Below the pieces are notes generated by a model that saw nothing but the letters and a program-made list of their open reading frames with translations, was not told the DNA's origin and searched no databases. Below are positions 7,313 through 13,756 of a stretch of DNA of 64,000 nucleotides, piece by piece. A program made the position numbers and the translations under genes. Within the stretch, counting starts at the first letter, position 1. Each line of letters opens with the position of its first letter. The stretch is from positions 192,001-256,000 of IMG/VR virus record IMGVR_UViG_3300037067_012889. One strand, 5' to 3'. Source of the stretch: a virus (lineage: Duplodnaviria; Caudoviricetes).

Positions 7313-7538
7313 CATGCAATATCTAGGAGCGAGCGATACTCTCTATTCCTGTTTTTGTTTACAGAAATATTCCTGTAGTCACCTGGGAACGAGCGGTACT
7401 CTCCATTGCAGAAAGGCGGATGGTCAAGATCGGGCTTCCTGTAGTCACCTGGGAACGAGCGGTACTCTCCATTGGAATGAGCTGTGCGAGCAATGGGCCA
7501 ACTCCTGTAGTCACCTGGGAACGAGCGGTACTCTCCAT
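7313..7538 (-). CRISPR. CRISPR array A: 3 perfect repeats plus 1 degenerate terminal repeat, 3 spacers
   Basis: 35-nt repeat cctgtagtcacctgggaacgagcggtactctccat at 7372, 7438 and 7504; degenerate copy at 7313-7346; spacers 25, 31 and 31 nt. Confidence 0.93.
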
Positions 7539-7583
7539 TACGCCAACGGGTTGACGGTCATAATAATACCACTAGTAAATCTG

Positions 7584-7922
7584 TCAGCTACATCGCACTC
7601 TACAATATGCCATGACTCTGTCATATATATAACATACGTCTGGTAAAAGCCAGATTGAATCGTCCCAAAATATCTGACCTTCTAGACCTTTCACGGTCTC
7701 TTCGACACATGAACAGGATACATATGTTACCTTCGATTCGCCAATAGTCAATGTGTTTCTATTCGAACGAATCGTAGGAATACCCATTTGGTCGAAAGAT
7801 CGCATATGCTGACTTAGCAGATCTTCGGCATATCGCTGGAAACAGGCGACCACTACGACATTCCGCTCTCCACGACGAACGGAGTCTATCACATCCTGGA
7901 TCAATTGTCGGCTGAGACCCAT
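7584..7922 (-). CDS. hypothetical protein inside the CRISPR locus
   Basis: 112-aa ORF between arrays A and B. Confidence 0.6.
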   Translation of the reverse strand: MGLSRQLIQDVIDSVRRGERNVVVVACFQRYAEDLLSQHMRSFDQMGIPTIRSNRNTLTIGESKVTYVSCSCVEETVKGLEGQIFWDDSIWLLPDVCYIYDRVMAYCRVRCS

Positions 7923-7939
7923 CAGTTCTCGGTTACGTT

Positions 7940-8473
7940 TCAGGCCGGTTGTGTTTCGGTCTCCAACAACGCTTCCAATTCGGCAATTTTCACGTTCAAC
8001 GCTTCGTTTTCTTCTTCGAGTTGTTTAATACGCGCCATCAGTTGGTCGATGATCGCCCTTTGGCGCACCTTCTCACGACGAGCTTGCGTAAGCTGGTCCT
8101 CGATTTGCCGTTGCTTCGGGCTACGTTTGGCCGATGGTGCGAGCCTGTTGCCCGAGATCATCTTCTGCCTCATCTTCCAAATCTTGCCATCAGCCCATTG
8201 CTCCTTACGTGGATAATATTCAAGGAGCTTTTCAAGTTCAAGGAAACTCAAACAGAGATCATCAACGTAGTCGTCCAGCAGGTCTGCTAACTTAAGGTCG
8301 TCAAGAACGTCGTTGTCGGCACGAAACTCCTCGTCGTGATAGACCCTGCTGAGCAGGACGATACGCTTATAAGCGTTAGCGCCGCTCCTCTCCCTCAATT
8401 TCCTCGCTTCCAGCAAGTTTGTCTTGTAGAGCTTGCTTGAGTTTTGTGGGGTCTGATCTGTCGAGTTCATCAA
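7940..8473 (-). CDS. helical hypothetical protein with C-terminal coiled coil
   Basis: 177 aa, GAGGAG RBS, heptad-rich C-terminus. Confidence 0.7.
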   Translation of the reverse strand: MMNSTDQTPQNSSKLYKTNLLEARKLRERSGANAYKRIVLLSRVYHDEEFRADNDVLDDLKLADLLDDYVDDLCLSFLELEKLLEYYPRKEQWADGKIWKMRQKMISGNRLAPSAKRSPKQRQIEDQLTQARREKVRQRAIIDQLMARIKQLEEENEALNVKIAELEALLETETQPA

Positions 8474-8609
8474 TAGTTCTCCTCATTCGTTTGTGGAAGT
8501 GTGCCAATGAAGCACAGTCCTTATTGCAATACTTACGACCCTCTTGCAATGGCATCTTGCAGATTGGACAGAAGAAACGAACAATATCAGCCTGTTTCGT
8601 AATTTCCAT
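8376..8609 (-). CDS. small Zn-finger protein
   Basis: CPICK...RKYCNKDC; overlaps the next ORF, so uncertain. Confidence 0.45.
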   Translation of the reverse strand: MEITKQADIVRFFCPICKMPLQEGRKYCNKDCASLAHFHKRMRRTIDELDRSDPTKLKQALQDKLAGSEEIEGEERR

Positions 8610-8619
8610 CCTATCCTGC

Positions 8620-8859
8620 CCTGCAGCCACCTAGAAACGATCACACTCTCTAAATACTGAGTTATCCAGAGAGCAGCAACCTGTAGTCACCTGGGAACGA
8701 GCGGTACTCTCCATCAACTTCGCACGCGGCTAGCACGCGTCCAGCCTGTAGTCACCTGGGAACGAGCGGTACTCTCCATCTGTCCCAACGCATCAGACAC
8801 CAACGCATCAGACAGACAACGCCGCCTGTAGTCACCTGGGAACGAGCGGTACTCTCCAT
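8620..8859 (-). CRISPR. CRISPR array B: 3 perfect repeats plus 1 degenerate terminal repeat, 3 spacers
   Basis: Repeats at 8680, 8745 and 8825; degenerate copy at 8620-8653; spacers 26, 30 and 45 nt. Confidence 0.93.
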
Positions 8860-8895
8860 TACGCCAACGGGTATTAAAGCATGCCACTAGTAAAA

Positions 8896-8972
8896 AGGTG
8901 ACTCTGGCGAGGGCTAACACGGTACGTATTGCCCGCAGCTATTCTCGCCTTCGAGACGTACAGGACGCCTCT
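8896..8972 (-). ncRNA. putative tracrRNA copy 1
   Basis: 77-nt element identical in 4 copies; two predicted stems; split complementarity to the repeat 3' end. Confidence 0.8.
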
Positions 8973-8985
8973 AAATTGATTCAGT

Positions 8986-11945: not shown

Positions 11946-12000
11946 AGGGCCTACATGGATTCACGCCTGTAATCATTGGAAGTTAACAATTCCAAAATAA
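11946..12000 (-). ncRNA. degenerate repeat plus putative guide fused to tracr copy 3 (natural single-guide candidate)
   Basis: Minus strand: tracr, then TTGGAA-N8-TTCCAA hairpin, then TGATTACAGG (repeat ends TGACTACAGG), then CGTGAATCCATGTAGGCCCT. Confidence 0.5.
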
Positions 12001-12077
12001 AGGTGACTCTGGCGAGGGCTAACACGGTACGTATTGCCCGCAGCTATTCTCGCCTTCGAGACGTACAGGACGCCTCT
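12001..12077 (-). ncRNA. putative tracrRNA copy 3
   Basis: Identical 77-nt element. Confidence 0.8.
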
Positions 12078-12104
12078 GGATTGAGTCTAATTGTTCCATA
12101 AAAG

Positions 12105-12133
12105 GTTGTAGCATGAAGAATAGAAATCATTAA
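12105..12133 (-). promoter_or_regulatory. internal promoter for tracr3 and the dCas12f genes
   Basis: TTAATG-N17-TACAAC with TCATGC before the -10, matching the recurring phage promoter motif. Confidence 0.55.
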
Positions 12134-12562
12134 CCTAGGAACGGCACCCTCCATTCTCTTGGTTCGATGTGTGGCTCGATTGGTTCCTATAGTCACCTTG
12201 GAACAAACGGTACTCTCCATTACACCTGGGAACGAGCGGTACTCTCCATTCACACACCACTTTACCGTTGAGTGGTGTCCTGCAGTCACCTGGGAACGAG
12301 TGGTACTCTCCATTATGGGAAATCCCACTTTACGGTTTACCTGTAGTCACCTGGGAACGAGCGGTACTCTCATTGGTTTTGCGGCAAACCTCTCTTCCCT
12401 TCTCCTGTAGTCACCTGGGAACGAGTGGTACTCTCCATCGATGGATGAAGAATTCCAGCAACCTGTAGTCACCTGGGAACGAACGGTAAACCCCATTCCA
12501 AAAGCCTGTATCGAGCAAACGGTCGCTCCTGTAGTCACCTGGGAACGAACGGTAAACCCCAT
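12128..12562 (-). CRISPR. CRISPR array C: 8 repeat units (variant, truncated and degenerate), 6 spacers
   Basis: Repeats at 12186, 12223 (truncated), 12279, 12340, 12404, 12462 and 12528; degenerate copy at ~12128-12154; spacers 31, 29, 26, 30, 23 and 31 nt. Confidence 0.93.
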
Positions 12563-12597
12563 TACGCCAACGGGTATTAAAGGATATCACTAATAAA

Positions 12598-12674
12598 AGG
12601 TGACTCTGGCGAGGGCTAACACGGTACGTATTGCCCGCAGCTATTCTCGCCTTCGAGACGTACAGGACGCCTCT
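12598..12674 (-). ncRNA. putative tracrRNA copy 4
   Basis: Identical 77-nt element 35 nt upstream of array C. Confidence 0.8.
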
Positions 12675-12688
12675 GGATTGAGTCTAAT

Positions 12689-13711
12689 TCACTTTGCACG
12701 TGGCCGCTTCACGCAGCTATTGGGCGAAAGTTGTTTGATACCTTCATTGGAACGCCATTTATTCCAAGCCATGACGCATCCGCGATACATCTCTTCTTGT
12801 GACACCGGCTTCCTATCACTCGACTTCTTGCCGTCGATGGTGCTCCTCTCCAAATAGTTCTTCAAAACCAAACGAGGGTCGCTCTTGTCGAAAAAGCCGA
12901 CGCCGGTCGTAACGGAAATCCAAAATTCACGTGCAGCCGATTGGCATTTTGTAAACGTCTCAAACATAGCGGCGACGACAGGGGCTCGCCAAATATGCTT
13001 TGTGATTTTGCTCTTGTTGGTCTTCAAGAACGTCAAGATCTGCTTCGCCACAATGTGGTATTCGGCATCCATGATATGGCACCGAGAATCAATGTCGAGT
13101 AAATAATGCCTATTCTGCACTTCCCACTTCCAAAGCGAGAATCCGTTGACGGCCACGTTTAACATGCCGCGATCGAACTCCTCATATCCTTCACGCCCGA
13201 GTAAAATAGAGTTGACGACCGTCGTGTTGGAACGCGAATAGTTGCGATCAAACGTGCCGTACAAAATACGGACATCGTCAATTGTCTTACAAGTGTAACG
13301 ATACATCCGAACCTTGTAAATCTGCTGGATGTCGTCCGGAAGAGTAATAAACGCCCATGCCGTGTGCTGCCCGTTGATACGATACTTCGCTTTGTCCTCC
13401 TGGCAATGCGCCGTAGCCAAGATGACTTGTTCTGGGCGAAACAACCCACGTACCATACAACGCTGTAAGTATGCGACGTGGGCATCACGAATCGACCGTT
13501 CGGCGACAAATTCCTTCATCTCCAAGAGTTCAGTACAAAGCTCCTTCGTCAATGTGACGATCTCTTCCTTACCGAGCCTGATTGATTCACCCATTTCTTG
13601 AACATCGGGGCCAGCAGCCTGCCCAGGCTGCATAAGGTGATCAAGATCGACGTTGGACGTTGTGAAGCTAGACTGATCGGACATAGCGAAACTCCTATCT
13701 GTGCAAGACAA
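12689..13711 (-). CDS. ParB/Srx-like (DGQHR-type) domain protein heading the CRISPR operon
   Basis: ERSIRDAHVAYL..M..G.F...YRINGQHTAWA...FDRNYSRS; probable start MSDQ after AGGAG. Confidence 0.6.
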   Translation of the reverse strand: MSCTDRSFAMSDQSSFTTSNVDLDHLMQPGQAAGPDVQEMGESIRLGKEEIVTLTKELCTELLEMKEFVAERSIRDAHVAYLQRCMVRGLFRPEQVILATAHCQEDKAKYRINGQHTAWAFITLPDDIQQIYKVRMYRYTCKTIDDVRILYGTFDRNYSRSNTTVVNSILLGREGYEEFDRGMLNVAVNGFSLWKWEVQNRHYLLDIDSRCHIMDAEYHIVAKQILTFLKTNKSKITKHIWRAPVVAAMFETFTKCQSAAREFWISVTTGVGFFDKSDPRLVLKNYLERSTIDGKKSSDRKPVSQEEMYRGCVMAWNKWRSNEGIKQLSPNSCVKRPRAK

Positions 13712-13727
13712 TAAGTCGGAATATCAC

Positions 13728-13756
13728 GTTATAGCACGATGCCAAATAATTATTAA
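13728..13756 (-). promoter_or_regulatory. sigma70-type phage promoter upstream of the CRISPR locus
   Basis: TTAATA-N17-TATAAC with TCGTGC extension. Confidence 0.7.

Follow-up and report, generated by a model that had tools for sequence, protein, structure and literature searches.

The minus strand of positions 7313-13756 of the window (the whole 64,000-nucleotide stretch of DNA that we analysed) carries three CRISPR arrays, a structured RNA present in four almost identical copies, and a pair of Cas12f-like paralogues (Table 1). The window is part of the complete 363,885-bp genome of a T4-like jumbo phage (CheckV, 100% complete), and the Gp23 capsid, T4 portal and TerL genes present in the contig bear out its predicted viral origin. 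Most of the elements listed in the original prediction were found as described and in the same order on the minus strand. That component list was incomplete, however: the three open reading frames (ORFs) that it placed between arrays B and A are present, but two of them are conserved components of the system, encoding a coiled-coil and a zinc-ribbon partner protein that had not been recognised as such.

Table 1. Features of the phage dCas12f locus and related elements in the window.
Feature	Position	Strand	Remarks
Solo repeat 3′ end, exact GGTGACTACAGG	5819..5836	-	Start codon of ORF 5466-5810 follows after 8 nt
CRISPR array A	about 7313..7539	-	3 identical full repeats and a degenerate terminal repeat
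112-aa ORF	7584..7922	-	No assigned function; not conserved in related loci
Coiled-coil partner, 176 aa	7940..8470	-	N-terminal helical domain of ~100 aa, C-terminal leucine-zipper-like helix
Zinc-ribbon protein, 77 aa	8376..8609	-	CPxC...CxxxC, then FHKRMRRT
CRISPR array B	8620..8860	-	3 repeats and a degenerate terminal repeat; last repeat abuts the ribosome-binding site (RBS) of the zinc-ribbon gene
tracrRNA copy 1	8896..8972	-	Upstream of array B leader; covariance model
96-aa ORF	8986..9276	-	No assigned function; not conserved in related loci
dCas12f-B, 401 aa	9308..10513	-	Paralogue of dCas12f-A with the same losses
tracrRNA copy 2	10533..10609	-	Between dCas12f-A and dCas12f-B; covariance model
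dCas12f-A, 434 aa	10621..11925	-	Cas12f fold; RuvC-I Asp lost; C terminus truncated
Repeat 3′-end mimic TGATTACAGG	11975-11966 (element 11926..11975)	-	40-nt 5′ UTR to the dCas12f-A start codon; read from sequence
tracrRNA copy 3	12001..12077	-	5′ leader of dCas12f-A; MFE -30.1 kcal/mol, z -2.48
Promoter-like motif	12106..12133	-	Upstream of tracrRNA copy 3 and dCas12f-A; predicted
CRISPR array C	about 12140..12563	-	7 units (one truncated/fused) and a degenerate terminal repeat
tracrRNA copy 4	12598..12674	-	Directly upstream of array C leader; 81.9 bits, E 5.8e-21
340-aa ORF (ORF340, 'ParB-like' ORF)	12689..13711	-	phrog_5931 the sole match, function unassigned
Promoter-like motif, TTAA-N16-GTGCTATAA, extended -10 type	13729..13756	-	Upstream of ORF340; repeat family D4; predicted

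A promoter-like motif (TTAA-N14-17-RTGCTAYAA) occurs four times in the window, each time on the minus strand and upstream of ORFs or of the structured RNA, against a chance expectation of 0.11; the two promoters called originally are among these four. The ParB-like label that had been given to the 340-aa ORF found no such support: sequence searches returned no Pfam match at E ≤ 1, none in NCBIfam and none among PDB sequences. Because a homologue is absent from all 34 related loci, this ORF probably does not belong to the system.

The two Cas-like proteins, dCas12f-A and dCas12f-B, are 41% identical and carry the WED/REC/RuvC fold of Cas12f together with sequence similarity to Cas12f1. dCas12f-A matches AsCas12f (8j3r) with a phmmer E value of 7.4e-9, and its AF2 model (pLDDT 85) matches AsCas12f (8j12_A) in Foldseek with an E value of 2.4e-19 and a TM score of 0.64. 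The PADLOC Cas12f model detects dCas12f-A (E 6.6e-22, spanning model positions 3-341 of 399) as well as dCas12f-B (E 5.2e-9). Sequence, fold and RuvC losses agree with the earlier proposal of Cas12f derivatives whose catalytic apparatus is gone. The RuvC-I Asp is replaced by Thr270 in dCas12f-A and by Ser in dCas12f-B, and across 152 relatives no column in the surroundings of this motif is mainly Asp. The RuvC-II strand of dCas12f-A ends in Gln369-Pro370, a Gln-Pro pair that is near-invariant in the family; HMMER aligns Arg378 opposite the RuvC-II Glu, and the acidic E376, two positions before Arg378, corresponds to Asn in dCas12f-B and varies in the family. The RuvC-III region is missing from both proteins, which therefore have no intact Asp-Glu-Asp triad. 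Both end about 35 aa after the WDW motif, before the zinc finger; the tails past this motif measure 24-88 aa in relatives, and a CxxC..CxxC zinc finger occurs in the tail of none of the 152.

These proteins belong to a large phage dCas12f family that has not been described before and that is a variant of the known dCas12f systems. The family comprises at least 234 clusters (50% identity) at E ≤ 1e-30, and at least 150 related protein clusters show the same losses. No member was found in 185,579 bacterial and archaeal species genomes (one genome per species). The tree resolves an A clade and a B clade (support 100/100 each), and the two paralogues represent one old duplication of which both products have been retained.

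The repeated RNA element is a real tracrRNA, as had been proposed from the repetition. The 77-nt cores are identical in all four copies, each detected by the covariance model at E 6e-21. Compensatory changes were observed in 13 of 20 base pairs, and 92% of cells are paired, compared with 30-48% in slid controls. The anti-repeat is split, and both of its halves covary with the repeat of the locus in which they lie: complementarity is maximal, or tied for the maximum, with the own repeat in eight of nine loci, and one less in the exception, L004. Pairing between tracrRNA and repeat, also examined by cofolds, joins the 3′ tail of the tracrRNA to positions -13 to -6 of the repeat and the first-hairpin loop of the tracrRNA to the last 5-6 nt. 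Solved Cas12f guide RNAs also contain two separate repeat:anti-repeat duplexes.

One repeat is common to all three arrays, as originally stated, but it is 36 nt long rather than 35. Spacer lengths are irregular (22-44 nt in this phage, 22-30 nt in array C), and an orphan mini-array lies about 62 kb from the locus in the same genome. Several repeat-like units stand in gene leaders (Table 1). The one before dCas12f-A, which has similar motifs upstream of the A gene in the related loci L002 and L003, could be a candidate self-directed guide; the one before ORF 5466-5810 is an exact solo repeat 3′ end, and an exact 12-mer is expected by chance about 0.04 times in the phage genome (our own calculation). 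Arrays stand beside dCas12f in all long loci of relatives, with up to 16 spacers in one of them, and the repeat of the studied phage occurs in none of the 185,579 species genomes. The phage's own genome holds no further match of 17 nt or longer to any spacer, and matches of 12-14 nt occur there at chance level. Five spacers had no exact 22-nt match in IMG/VR, and the arrays matched no GenBank phage. Related phages have no spacers in common, which fits changing external targets.

The adaptation module is missing, in line with the original prediction: cas1, cas2 and cas4 gave zero matches across the whole 363,885-bp genome, whereas control genomes gave positive matches. The transposase and Tn7 genes said to be absent from the window were also not found, the IS200/IS605 Y1 transposase in the whole genome and tnsB, tnsC and tniQ domains in a scan of the ORFs flanking the locus. 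These two results, the Tn7 one drawn from the flanking ORFs, speak against a Cas12k or type V-K CAST identity. There is likewise no Sigma70_r2 match anywhere in the genome and no sigma domain in the flanking ORFs.

The coiled-coil gene follows dCas12f in every sufficiently long locus (about 20 loci), and a reverse search from its product returns to dCas12f neighbourhoods. This linkage persists at 25-30% dCas12f identity and spans unrelated backbones, including that of the T4-like jumbo phage and those carrying a GpA-type terminase and portal. The AF2 model of the coiled-coil protein reaches a pLDDT of 89.7, and searches gave no fold or family match, including none to sigma, HTH or enzyme families. 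The zinc-ribbon gene overlaps the start of the coiled-coil gene in a different frame; in about 16 loci a homologue precedes the coiled-coil gene, L035 and L040 lack one, and Pfam returned only sub-threshold matches to treble-clef or DUF2116 models. The strict linkage to the coiled-coil gene suggests that the system may do more than bind.

The account that we favour, and to which we give an even chance, is that of a type V-F-derived, non-cutting phage system for RNA-guided DNA binding that silences external targets. Phage promoters would drive transcription of the locus, and the dual guides would load onto both dead Cas12f paralogues, which probably dimerise and may form an A/B heterodimer. This complex would bind matching sequences in host DNA or in competing mobile elements rather than in the phage genome, and most likely block transcription or replication in a CRISPRi-like manner, with the coiled-coil protein, usually joined by the zinc-ribbon protein, as putative obligate accessory factors. 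Silencing by dead type V effectors has precedents (PMC13472631, PMC7162821, PMC11656645). External silencing is favoured by the lack of self-matches of at least 17 nt, of spacers in common and of nuclease or adaptation genes, and by the keeping of both paralogues; against it stand the lack of a protospacer in IMG/VR and GenBank phages, and the irregular spacers and repeat-like units in gene leaders, which could point to self-regulation. Because the spacers matched nothing in the databases searched, the originally proposed silencing or recruitment, aimed at host genes or competing elements, is a function that we infer.

Regulation of the phage's own genes, in which guides or leader mimics direct dCas12f or the tracrRNA to phage DNA or mRNA for feedback or timing, strikes us as improbable. 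The dCas12f-A, zinc-ribbon and ORF 5466-5810 leaders hold candidate sites: the exact repeat 3′ end before this ORF, the mimic 40 nt before dCas12f-A with its counterparts in two related loci, and the degenerate last repeat of array B at the zinc-ribbon RBS are all consistent with such a role. Cas9 and other systems are known to autoregulate through natural guides. Self-binding would, however, require a TAM compatible with the repeat end, the array spacers have only chance-level matches elsewhere in the genome, and they are not conserved among related phages. An anti-CRISPR decoy is more improbable still. Here dead Cas12f and tracrRNAs would soak up host V-F crRNAs or poison Cas12f dimers, an idea to which the four tracrRNA copies, the dimeric state of Cas12f in PDB entries and the similar action proposed for a phage dCas9 with its own tracrRNA (PMC11656645) lend some weight; yet neither the repeat nor any family member occurs in the 185,579 species genomes, tracrRNA and repeat co-evolve inside the phage loci, and the family keeps arrays of its own. 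Scarcely credible, and already strongly disfavoured, is the idea that a captured CRISPR-Cas12f locus survives here only as a non-functional relic in decay. The dead nuclease, the missing adaptation genes and the irregular, partly fused arrays would fit decay, but all ORFs are intact, the losses and the invariant residues are conserved across hundreds of diverse relatives, neither paralogue has been lost since the old duplication, and the RNA has undergone compensatory evolution.

Guided recruitment, which we consider rather unlikely, would have dCas12f-guide complexes deliver the coiled-coil protein as a dimer, alone or together with the zinc-ribbon protein, to a target, where the partner engages RNA polymerase (gene activation, as with sigma-E) or recruits or inhibits another host machine. 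The coiled-coil gene is co-inherited with dCas12f in about 25 loci of diverged sequence and unrelated backbones, its N-terminal domain is confidently modelled and has no known fold, and dCas12f-sigma-E shows a truncated dCas12f acting as a recruiter (PMC13472631). The partner, however, matches no sigma, HTH or enzyme family and could equally be a structural or RNA-handling subunit. Possible, if doubtful, is a three-part machine in which the guide-loaded dCas12f dimer, an obligate A/B heterodimer in jumbo phages, aims and the dimeric coiled-coil protein, alone or together with the zinc-ribbon protein, acts in a new way at the site, perhaps by switching host or phage genes on or by hijacking a host complex. 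If true, Cas12f would have been exapted independently once more, beside sigma-E recruitment, and for the first time in viruses.

Dead miniature Cas12f proteins were recently shown to be natural RNA-guided transcription factors in bacteria. Dead Cas12f also has a large and diverse phage branch, which retains a tracrRNA and real arrays and is tied to a previously undescribed, conserved coiled-coil partner. The role of this partner and the targets of the guides would reveal what viruses do with programmable DNA binding in the course of infection. The family could further be a source of targeting proteins that are very small (about 400 aa), do not cut by nature and come with a built-in handle for recruitment, and the retained A/B pair is a natural test of whether a Cas12f homodimer can evolve into a heterodimer.

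The architecture, which the original prediction did not recognise, is less unprecedented than it seemed, given the truncated dCas12f near arrays in PMC13472631 and the huge-phage 'dCas14' in PMC7162821. The closest sequence relatives of dCas12f-A and dCas12f-B are the Cas12f1 nucleases (AsCas12f 8j12/7wju/8dzj; SpCas12f1 9i8y), which are of the same fold and size class and likewise depend on a tracrRNA and a CRISPR array in which the repeat precedes the guide. Unlike Cas12f1, the phage proteins lack the RuvC-I Asp and end before the zinc finger and RuvC-III, and their genes are phage-borne, without cas1/2/4, and always attached to new partner genes.

The Bacteroidetes dCas12f-sigma-E system, an RNA-guided transcription system (Hoffmann et al. 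2026, PMC13472631; PDB 9n9c, 9n9m), likewise pairs a nuclease-dead Cas12f, truncated at its C terminus, with a conserved partner protein, and the fold of dCas12f-A matches 9n9c_A (E 1.9e-16, TM 0.76 on target). By sequence, the phage dCas12f is nearer to active AsCas12f, and the 9n9c chain was not listed in the PDB sequence search. dCas12f-sigma-E is chromosomal and uses a single chimeric guide, whereas the phage-borne system has a dual tracrRNA:crRNA from real arrays, no adjacent rpoE or other sigma gene and a coiled-coil protein as its partner. The same paper (Extended Data Fig. 1a,b) mentions a 'distinct cluster' of array-linked dCas12f, with a Chitinophagaceae MAG and an efflux-pump promoter target. 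Compared by its description, that cluster also places a dead, truncated Cas12f beside arrays with a structured RNA upstream, and repression was proposed for it; the mention includes no partner, phage context or tracrRNA pairing. As the phage family is absent from the 185,579 species genomes, it may form a clade of its own.

Al-Shayeb et al. 2020 (PMC7162821) proposed that a huge-phage 'dCas14' represses the host glycyl-tRNA synthetase gene. This Cas14/Cas12f effector, too, is encoded by a huge phage, misses a catalytic residue and stands without adaptation genes. It is described in one sentence, on which our comparison draws, and comes from another phage (about 29% G+C); one residue is missing there as opposed to the whole C-terminal module here, and partners and a tracrRNA are not part of that description. 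TldR proteins, TnpB-like nuclease-dead repressors that include prophage-encoded examples (bioRxiv 10.1101/2023.11.30.569447), and Cas12m (type V-M) are also TnpB/Cas12 derivatives with an inactive RuvC that act as RNA-guided DNA binders and transcriptional repressors. A TnpB-clade or TldR identity was rejected, as TnpB structures rank below Cas12f (E 3.7e-11 to 4e-7) and guided_TnpB scores far below the NCBIfam cut-off. Both TldR and Cas12m are weaker structural matches than Cas12f in Foldseek; Cas12m measures about 600 aa and uses no tracrRNA, and TldR relies on a single omega-RNA-like guide without arrays, whereas the studied phage combines arrays with a tracrRNA.

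The Cas12f-like, cleavage-dead character originally predicted for the two paralogous proteins of the phage locus, dCas12f-A (434 aa) and dCas12f-B (401 aa), was supported by both sequence and fold. By sequence, dCas12f-A matches AsCas12f at E 7.4e-9 and the PADLOC Cas12f model at E 6.6e-22, the latter limited to model positions 3-341 of 399. In the structural comparison with Cas12f1 and TnpB that had been proposed, its AlphaFold model (pLDDT 85) was closest to AsCas12f (8j12_A, E 2.4e-19, TM 0.64; Foldseek), with further Cas12f structures and then sigma-E-linked dCas12f (9n9c_A, E 1.9e-16) next; TnpB, Cas12k and Cas12m ranked below the Cas12f structures. 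The RuvC-I aspartate of AsCas12f aligns with Thr270 of dCas12f-A (HMMER) and is a serine in dCas12f-B, and the RuvC-II strand terminates in Gln-Pro. Because the chain ends around 35 residues past a conserved WDW motif, it lacks both the zinc finger and RuvC-III.

These losses extend well beyond a single phage. A profile search based on 20 homologues returned 1,135 clusters at 50% identity (E<=1e-3), including 234 at E<=1e-30, from IMG/VR viral contigs and metagenome contigs; no family member was found among 185,579 bacterial and archaeal species (one genome each) or in GenBank phages. The best 150 clusters measure 307-596 aa, mostly 400-500, and almost all match the profile over its full length. 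Across a family alignment of 152 sequences (the best 150 clusters, A, B and four alignment members), the RuvC-I region has no column that is mainly Asp, the RuvC-II site is near fixed (Gln in 119 and Pro in 144 of 152) and the C-terminal tails, 24-88 aa long, never contain a zinc-finger motif. On this evidence, the dead, truncated state is ancestral to a large family.

The layout of the locus as first described was borne out by a repeat search and direct reading, except that the repeat is 36 nt long rather than 35; a degenerate repeat closes each array, as had been claimed. The features are listed below in their minus-strand order, followed by elements elsewhere in the window or genome.

Features of the phage locus and related elements (window positions unless marked as genome)
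Feature	Position	Strand	Remark
Promoter-like motif	13729-13756	minus	upstream of 340-aa ORF
340-aa ORF	12689-13711	minus	'ParB-like' in the original prediction
tracrRNA copy	12598-12674	minus
Leader		minus	short, conserved (…ACCCGTTGGCGT)
Array C	12140-12563	minus
Promoter-like motif	12106-12133	minus	upstream of dCas12f operon
tracrRNA copy	12001-12077	minus	followed by 10-nt repeat-end mimic
dCas12f-A	10621-11925	minus
tracrRNA copy	10533-10609	minus
dCas12f-B	9308-10513	minus
96-aa ORF		minus
tracrRNA copy	8896-8972	minus	followed by leader
Array B	8620-8860	minus
Zinc-ribbon ORF (77 aa)	8376-8609	minus	one of three ORFs before the next leader
Coiled-coil ORF (176 aa)	7940-8470	minus	one of the same three ORFs
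Array A	7313-7539	minus	preceded by leader
Promoter-like motif	14776-14803	minus	upstream of 109-aa ORF
Promoter-like motif	19468-19495	minus	upstream of 1314-aa helicase gene
LemA-family and TPM-domain genes	5859-7263	minus	adjoin locus
Exact repeat end	5819-5836	minus	8 nt ahead of start codon of ORF 5466-5810
Ro60/TROVE-domain gene	23144-24535	minus	RNA-binding protein; PHROG E 1.7e-32
tRNA-Ser(TGA) gene	24829-24898	minus	close to Ro60/TROVE-domain gene
Orphan mini-array	genome 137,404-137,483	minus	L046:2405-2484; ~62 kb from locus
Degenerate tracr-like stretch	genome 9,900-9,943	plus	far from locus

Four copies of the promoter-like motif, TTAA-N14-17-RTGCTAYAA, were found in the window against 0.11 expected; all are on the minus strand with an ORF or tracrRNA downstream, and they probably represent one phage promoter class. 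As the dCas12f operon and the helicase gene share this motif, the timing of the CRISPR-like locus may be coupled to that of the helicase. A generic sigma-70 promoter scan did no better than on shuffled sequence. In related loci from other viral and metagenome contigs (L001, L002 and so on), arrays adjoin dCas12f in all long loci, mostly between dCas12f and the partner or zinc-ribbon genes. Two sample assemblies of one phage (L003:9785-9902 and L014:9838-9932) are set apart by two repeat-spacer units at the cas-proximal end of one array; arrays therefore change over short timescales even though cas1 and cas2 are lacking.

The repeated RNA element upstream of dCas12f proved to be a tracrRNA, as originally claimed. 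In a 94-nt form it also precedes dCas12f in diverged loci, and a covariance model of 21 copies, searched against 306 kb, gave 28 matches (E 1.8e-23 to 3.7e-10), each of them close to a dCas12f gene. In the model-fitted alignment, which leans toward structure, 92% of cells are paired, compared with 30-48% when partners are slid; compensatory changes occur in 13 of 20 pairs, including all seven of the first hairpin, and none of 500 shuffles reached the observed values. An independent MAFFT/RNAalifold run recovered five compensatory pairs in the second stem. When cofolded with the repeat of its own locus, the 3' tail pairs at repeat positions of about -13 to -6, and the loop of the first hairpin is complementary to the repeat's final 5-6 nt. 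Both anti-repeat halves change together with the repeat: the pairing is AGUCACCU:AGGUGACU in the phage studied and ACUUGCCUUU:AAAGGCAAGU in L005, with the variant CCUGAUUGCA in L023 and the loop pairing CCUGC:GCAGG in L008. In a 9x9 matrix of tracrRNAs and repeats, the own pairing was highest or tied except for L004, for which the near-identical repeats of the phage studied and L002 scored one higher than its own. The cofolds, the co-changing pairs and the matrix together identify the element as a tracrRNA with a split anti-repeat.

Two conserved genes, encoding a coiled-coil and a zinc-ribbon protein, had been missed. The search for syntenic loci suggested at the outset covered 34 related loci (tblastn), and in around 20 of them the coiled-coil gene lies 3' of dCas12f, including dCas12f of only 25-30% identity; the 340-aa, 96-aa and 112-aa ORFs were unique to the phage studied when every locus ORF was searched in the same way. 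A reverse profile search with the coiled-coil protein returned 17 proteins. Three of these were traced to seven contigs, each time directly after a 440-448-aa gene, and the five such genes scored against the dCas12f profile gave E 1e-111 to 1e-118. Tara Oceans assemblies are among the traced loci, several of which carry a terminase, a portal or both. The predicted structure (pLDDT 89.7) combines an N-terminal helical domain of around 100 aa with a long C-terminal helix of heptad character. Foldseek (PDB, BFVD) and a wide VIA-align search matched the long helix only, and PHROGs, Pfam, NCBIfam, PADLOC and PDB profiles yielded coiled-coil or bZIP-like noise only.

The zinc-ribbon ORF (CPxC…CxxxC, then FHKRLRRT) precedes the coiled-coil gene in around 16 loci and is absent where the gap between dCas12f and the partner is only about 60 nt. 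It overruns the coiled-coil start by about 30-45 codons in another frame (8376-8473 in the window, minus strand), with the same junction in L001-L005, L019 and L027. Judged by eye, the protein sequences of both frames seem conserved, suggesting that the two genes truly overlap. We do not claim the zinc-ribbon gene as a split-off Cas12f zinc finger, as its CxxC...CxxxC motif is unlike that of Cas12f.

The window belongs to a single virus record of 363,885 bp (CheckV 100% complete) encoding a Gp23-type major capsid protein, a T4-type portal and a large terminase; the closest GenBank capsid relative, from a 595-kb uncultured huge phage, is 36% identical. A domain search extended the claimed lack of cas1, cas2 and cas4 to the entire genome, which also lacks a Y1 transposase and a sigma-70 region-2 domain, and no dCas12f gene beyond A and B was found in it. 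A possible clue to the host lineage comes from the LemA-family and TPM-domain genes, both host-like membrane genes, of which the TPM-domain gene has a prepilin-type N-terminal methylation motif. Near the Ro60/TROVE-domain and tRNA-Ser(TGA) genes, Rfam gave no match at gathering thresholds.

Stray repeat units also occur outside the locus. Far from the arrays, the last 12 nt of the repeat (GGTGACTACAGG) recur exactly, followed by a duplicated ACTACAGG with which several L003 'spacers' also start; this stretch might act as a stand-alone guide unit or give the tracrRNA a handle at the RNA level. The orphan mini-array consists of a leader-like TTGGCGT, a full repeat (4 mismatches), a spacer of around 31 nt and a truncated repeat. 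Its placement in a gene leader was rejected, as the ORF list puts it between two convergent ORFs. An additional, distant array also occurs in the related phage behind L003 (record G002, about 123.7-124.0 kb). A possible decayed tracr/guide unit lies on the opposite strand, where a degenerate tracr-tail-like GTCGCCAGAGTACCTTAT precedes a repeat-end-like CCAAGGTGATTACAGG.

Taken together, the parts of the locus establish an RNA-guided module that is unable to cut. We consider it most likely, with confidence about evenly balanced, that the module binds external DNA without cutting it, that silencing is the default result and that the coiled-coil protein serves as an obligate accessory. The spacer search of phage collections proposed with the original prediction returned no match, and hence no PAM: the first 22 nt of five window spacers had no exact match in IMG/VR, and the arrays had no credible match in GenBank phages. 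The main rival, that a new activity is recruited through the coiled-coil partner, strikes us as a good deal less probable; complex prediction of dCas12f-A with coiled-coil residues 1-115 scored 0.00 ('no answer'), which speaks neither for nor against binding. We regard self-regulation of the phage as unlikely. The 13 array spacers and five orphan or leader guides have no match of at least 17 nt in their own genome, where 12-14-mers occur at chance level; around 100 spacers of related loci, searched against the compared loci and the phage genome, gave same-phage duplicates only, and no spacer is common to the phage studied, L002 and L003.

An anti-CRISPR decoy is more doubtful still; the repeat was found in none of 185,579 species genomes and is otherwise restricted to the L002 and L003 phages. 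Decay of the system is very improbable. Arrays are short and irregular in the phage studied, whereas more distant relatives have 11-16 spacers of uniform length. The paralogues, 41% identical over their full length, form two clades in a maximum-likelihood tree, with the A proteins of the phage studied, L002 and L003 in one (100/100) and the B proteins in the other (100/100); the clades are sisters (84/76), and the single-copy L004 and L005 fall outside both. This indicates one duplication with both copies retained down to around 50% identity, which argues for distinct roles of A and B. Because the Cas12f dimer is asymmetric, an A/B heterodimer is plausible by analogy.

Non-cutting DNA binding by such proteins has precedents. 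Hoffmann et al. (PMC13472631) characterised sigma-E-linked dCas12f and mentioned, without analysing it, another cluster in which truncated dCas12f lies near CRISPR arrays and for which repression was suggested as a role; a single huge-phage 'dCas14' was noted by Al-Shayeb et al. (PMC7162821). A review from 2024 on CRISPR systems of mobile elements (PMC11656645) makes no mention of Cas12f, and full-text searches returned nothing on phage-encoded dCas12f. The concept is thus already known, and the architecture, first described as unrecognised, is less unprecedented than that; what is new relative to this literature is the phage family, its partner genes, the retained dual-RNA guide and the A/B pair.
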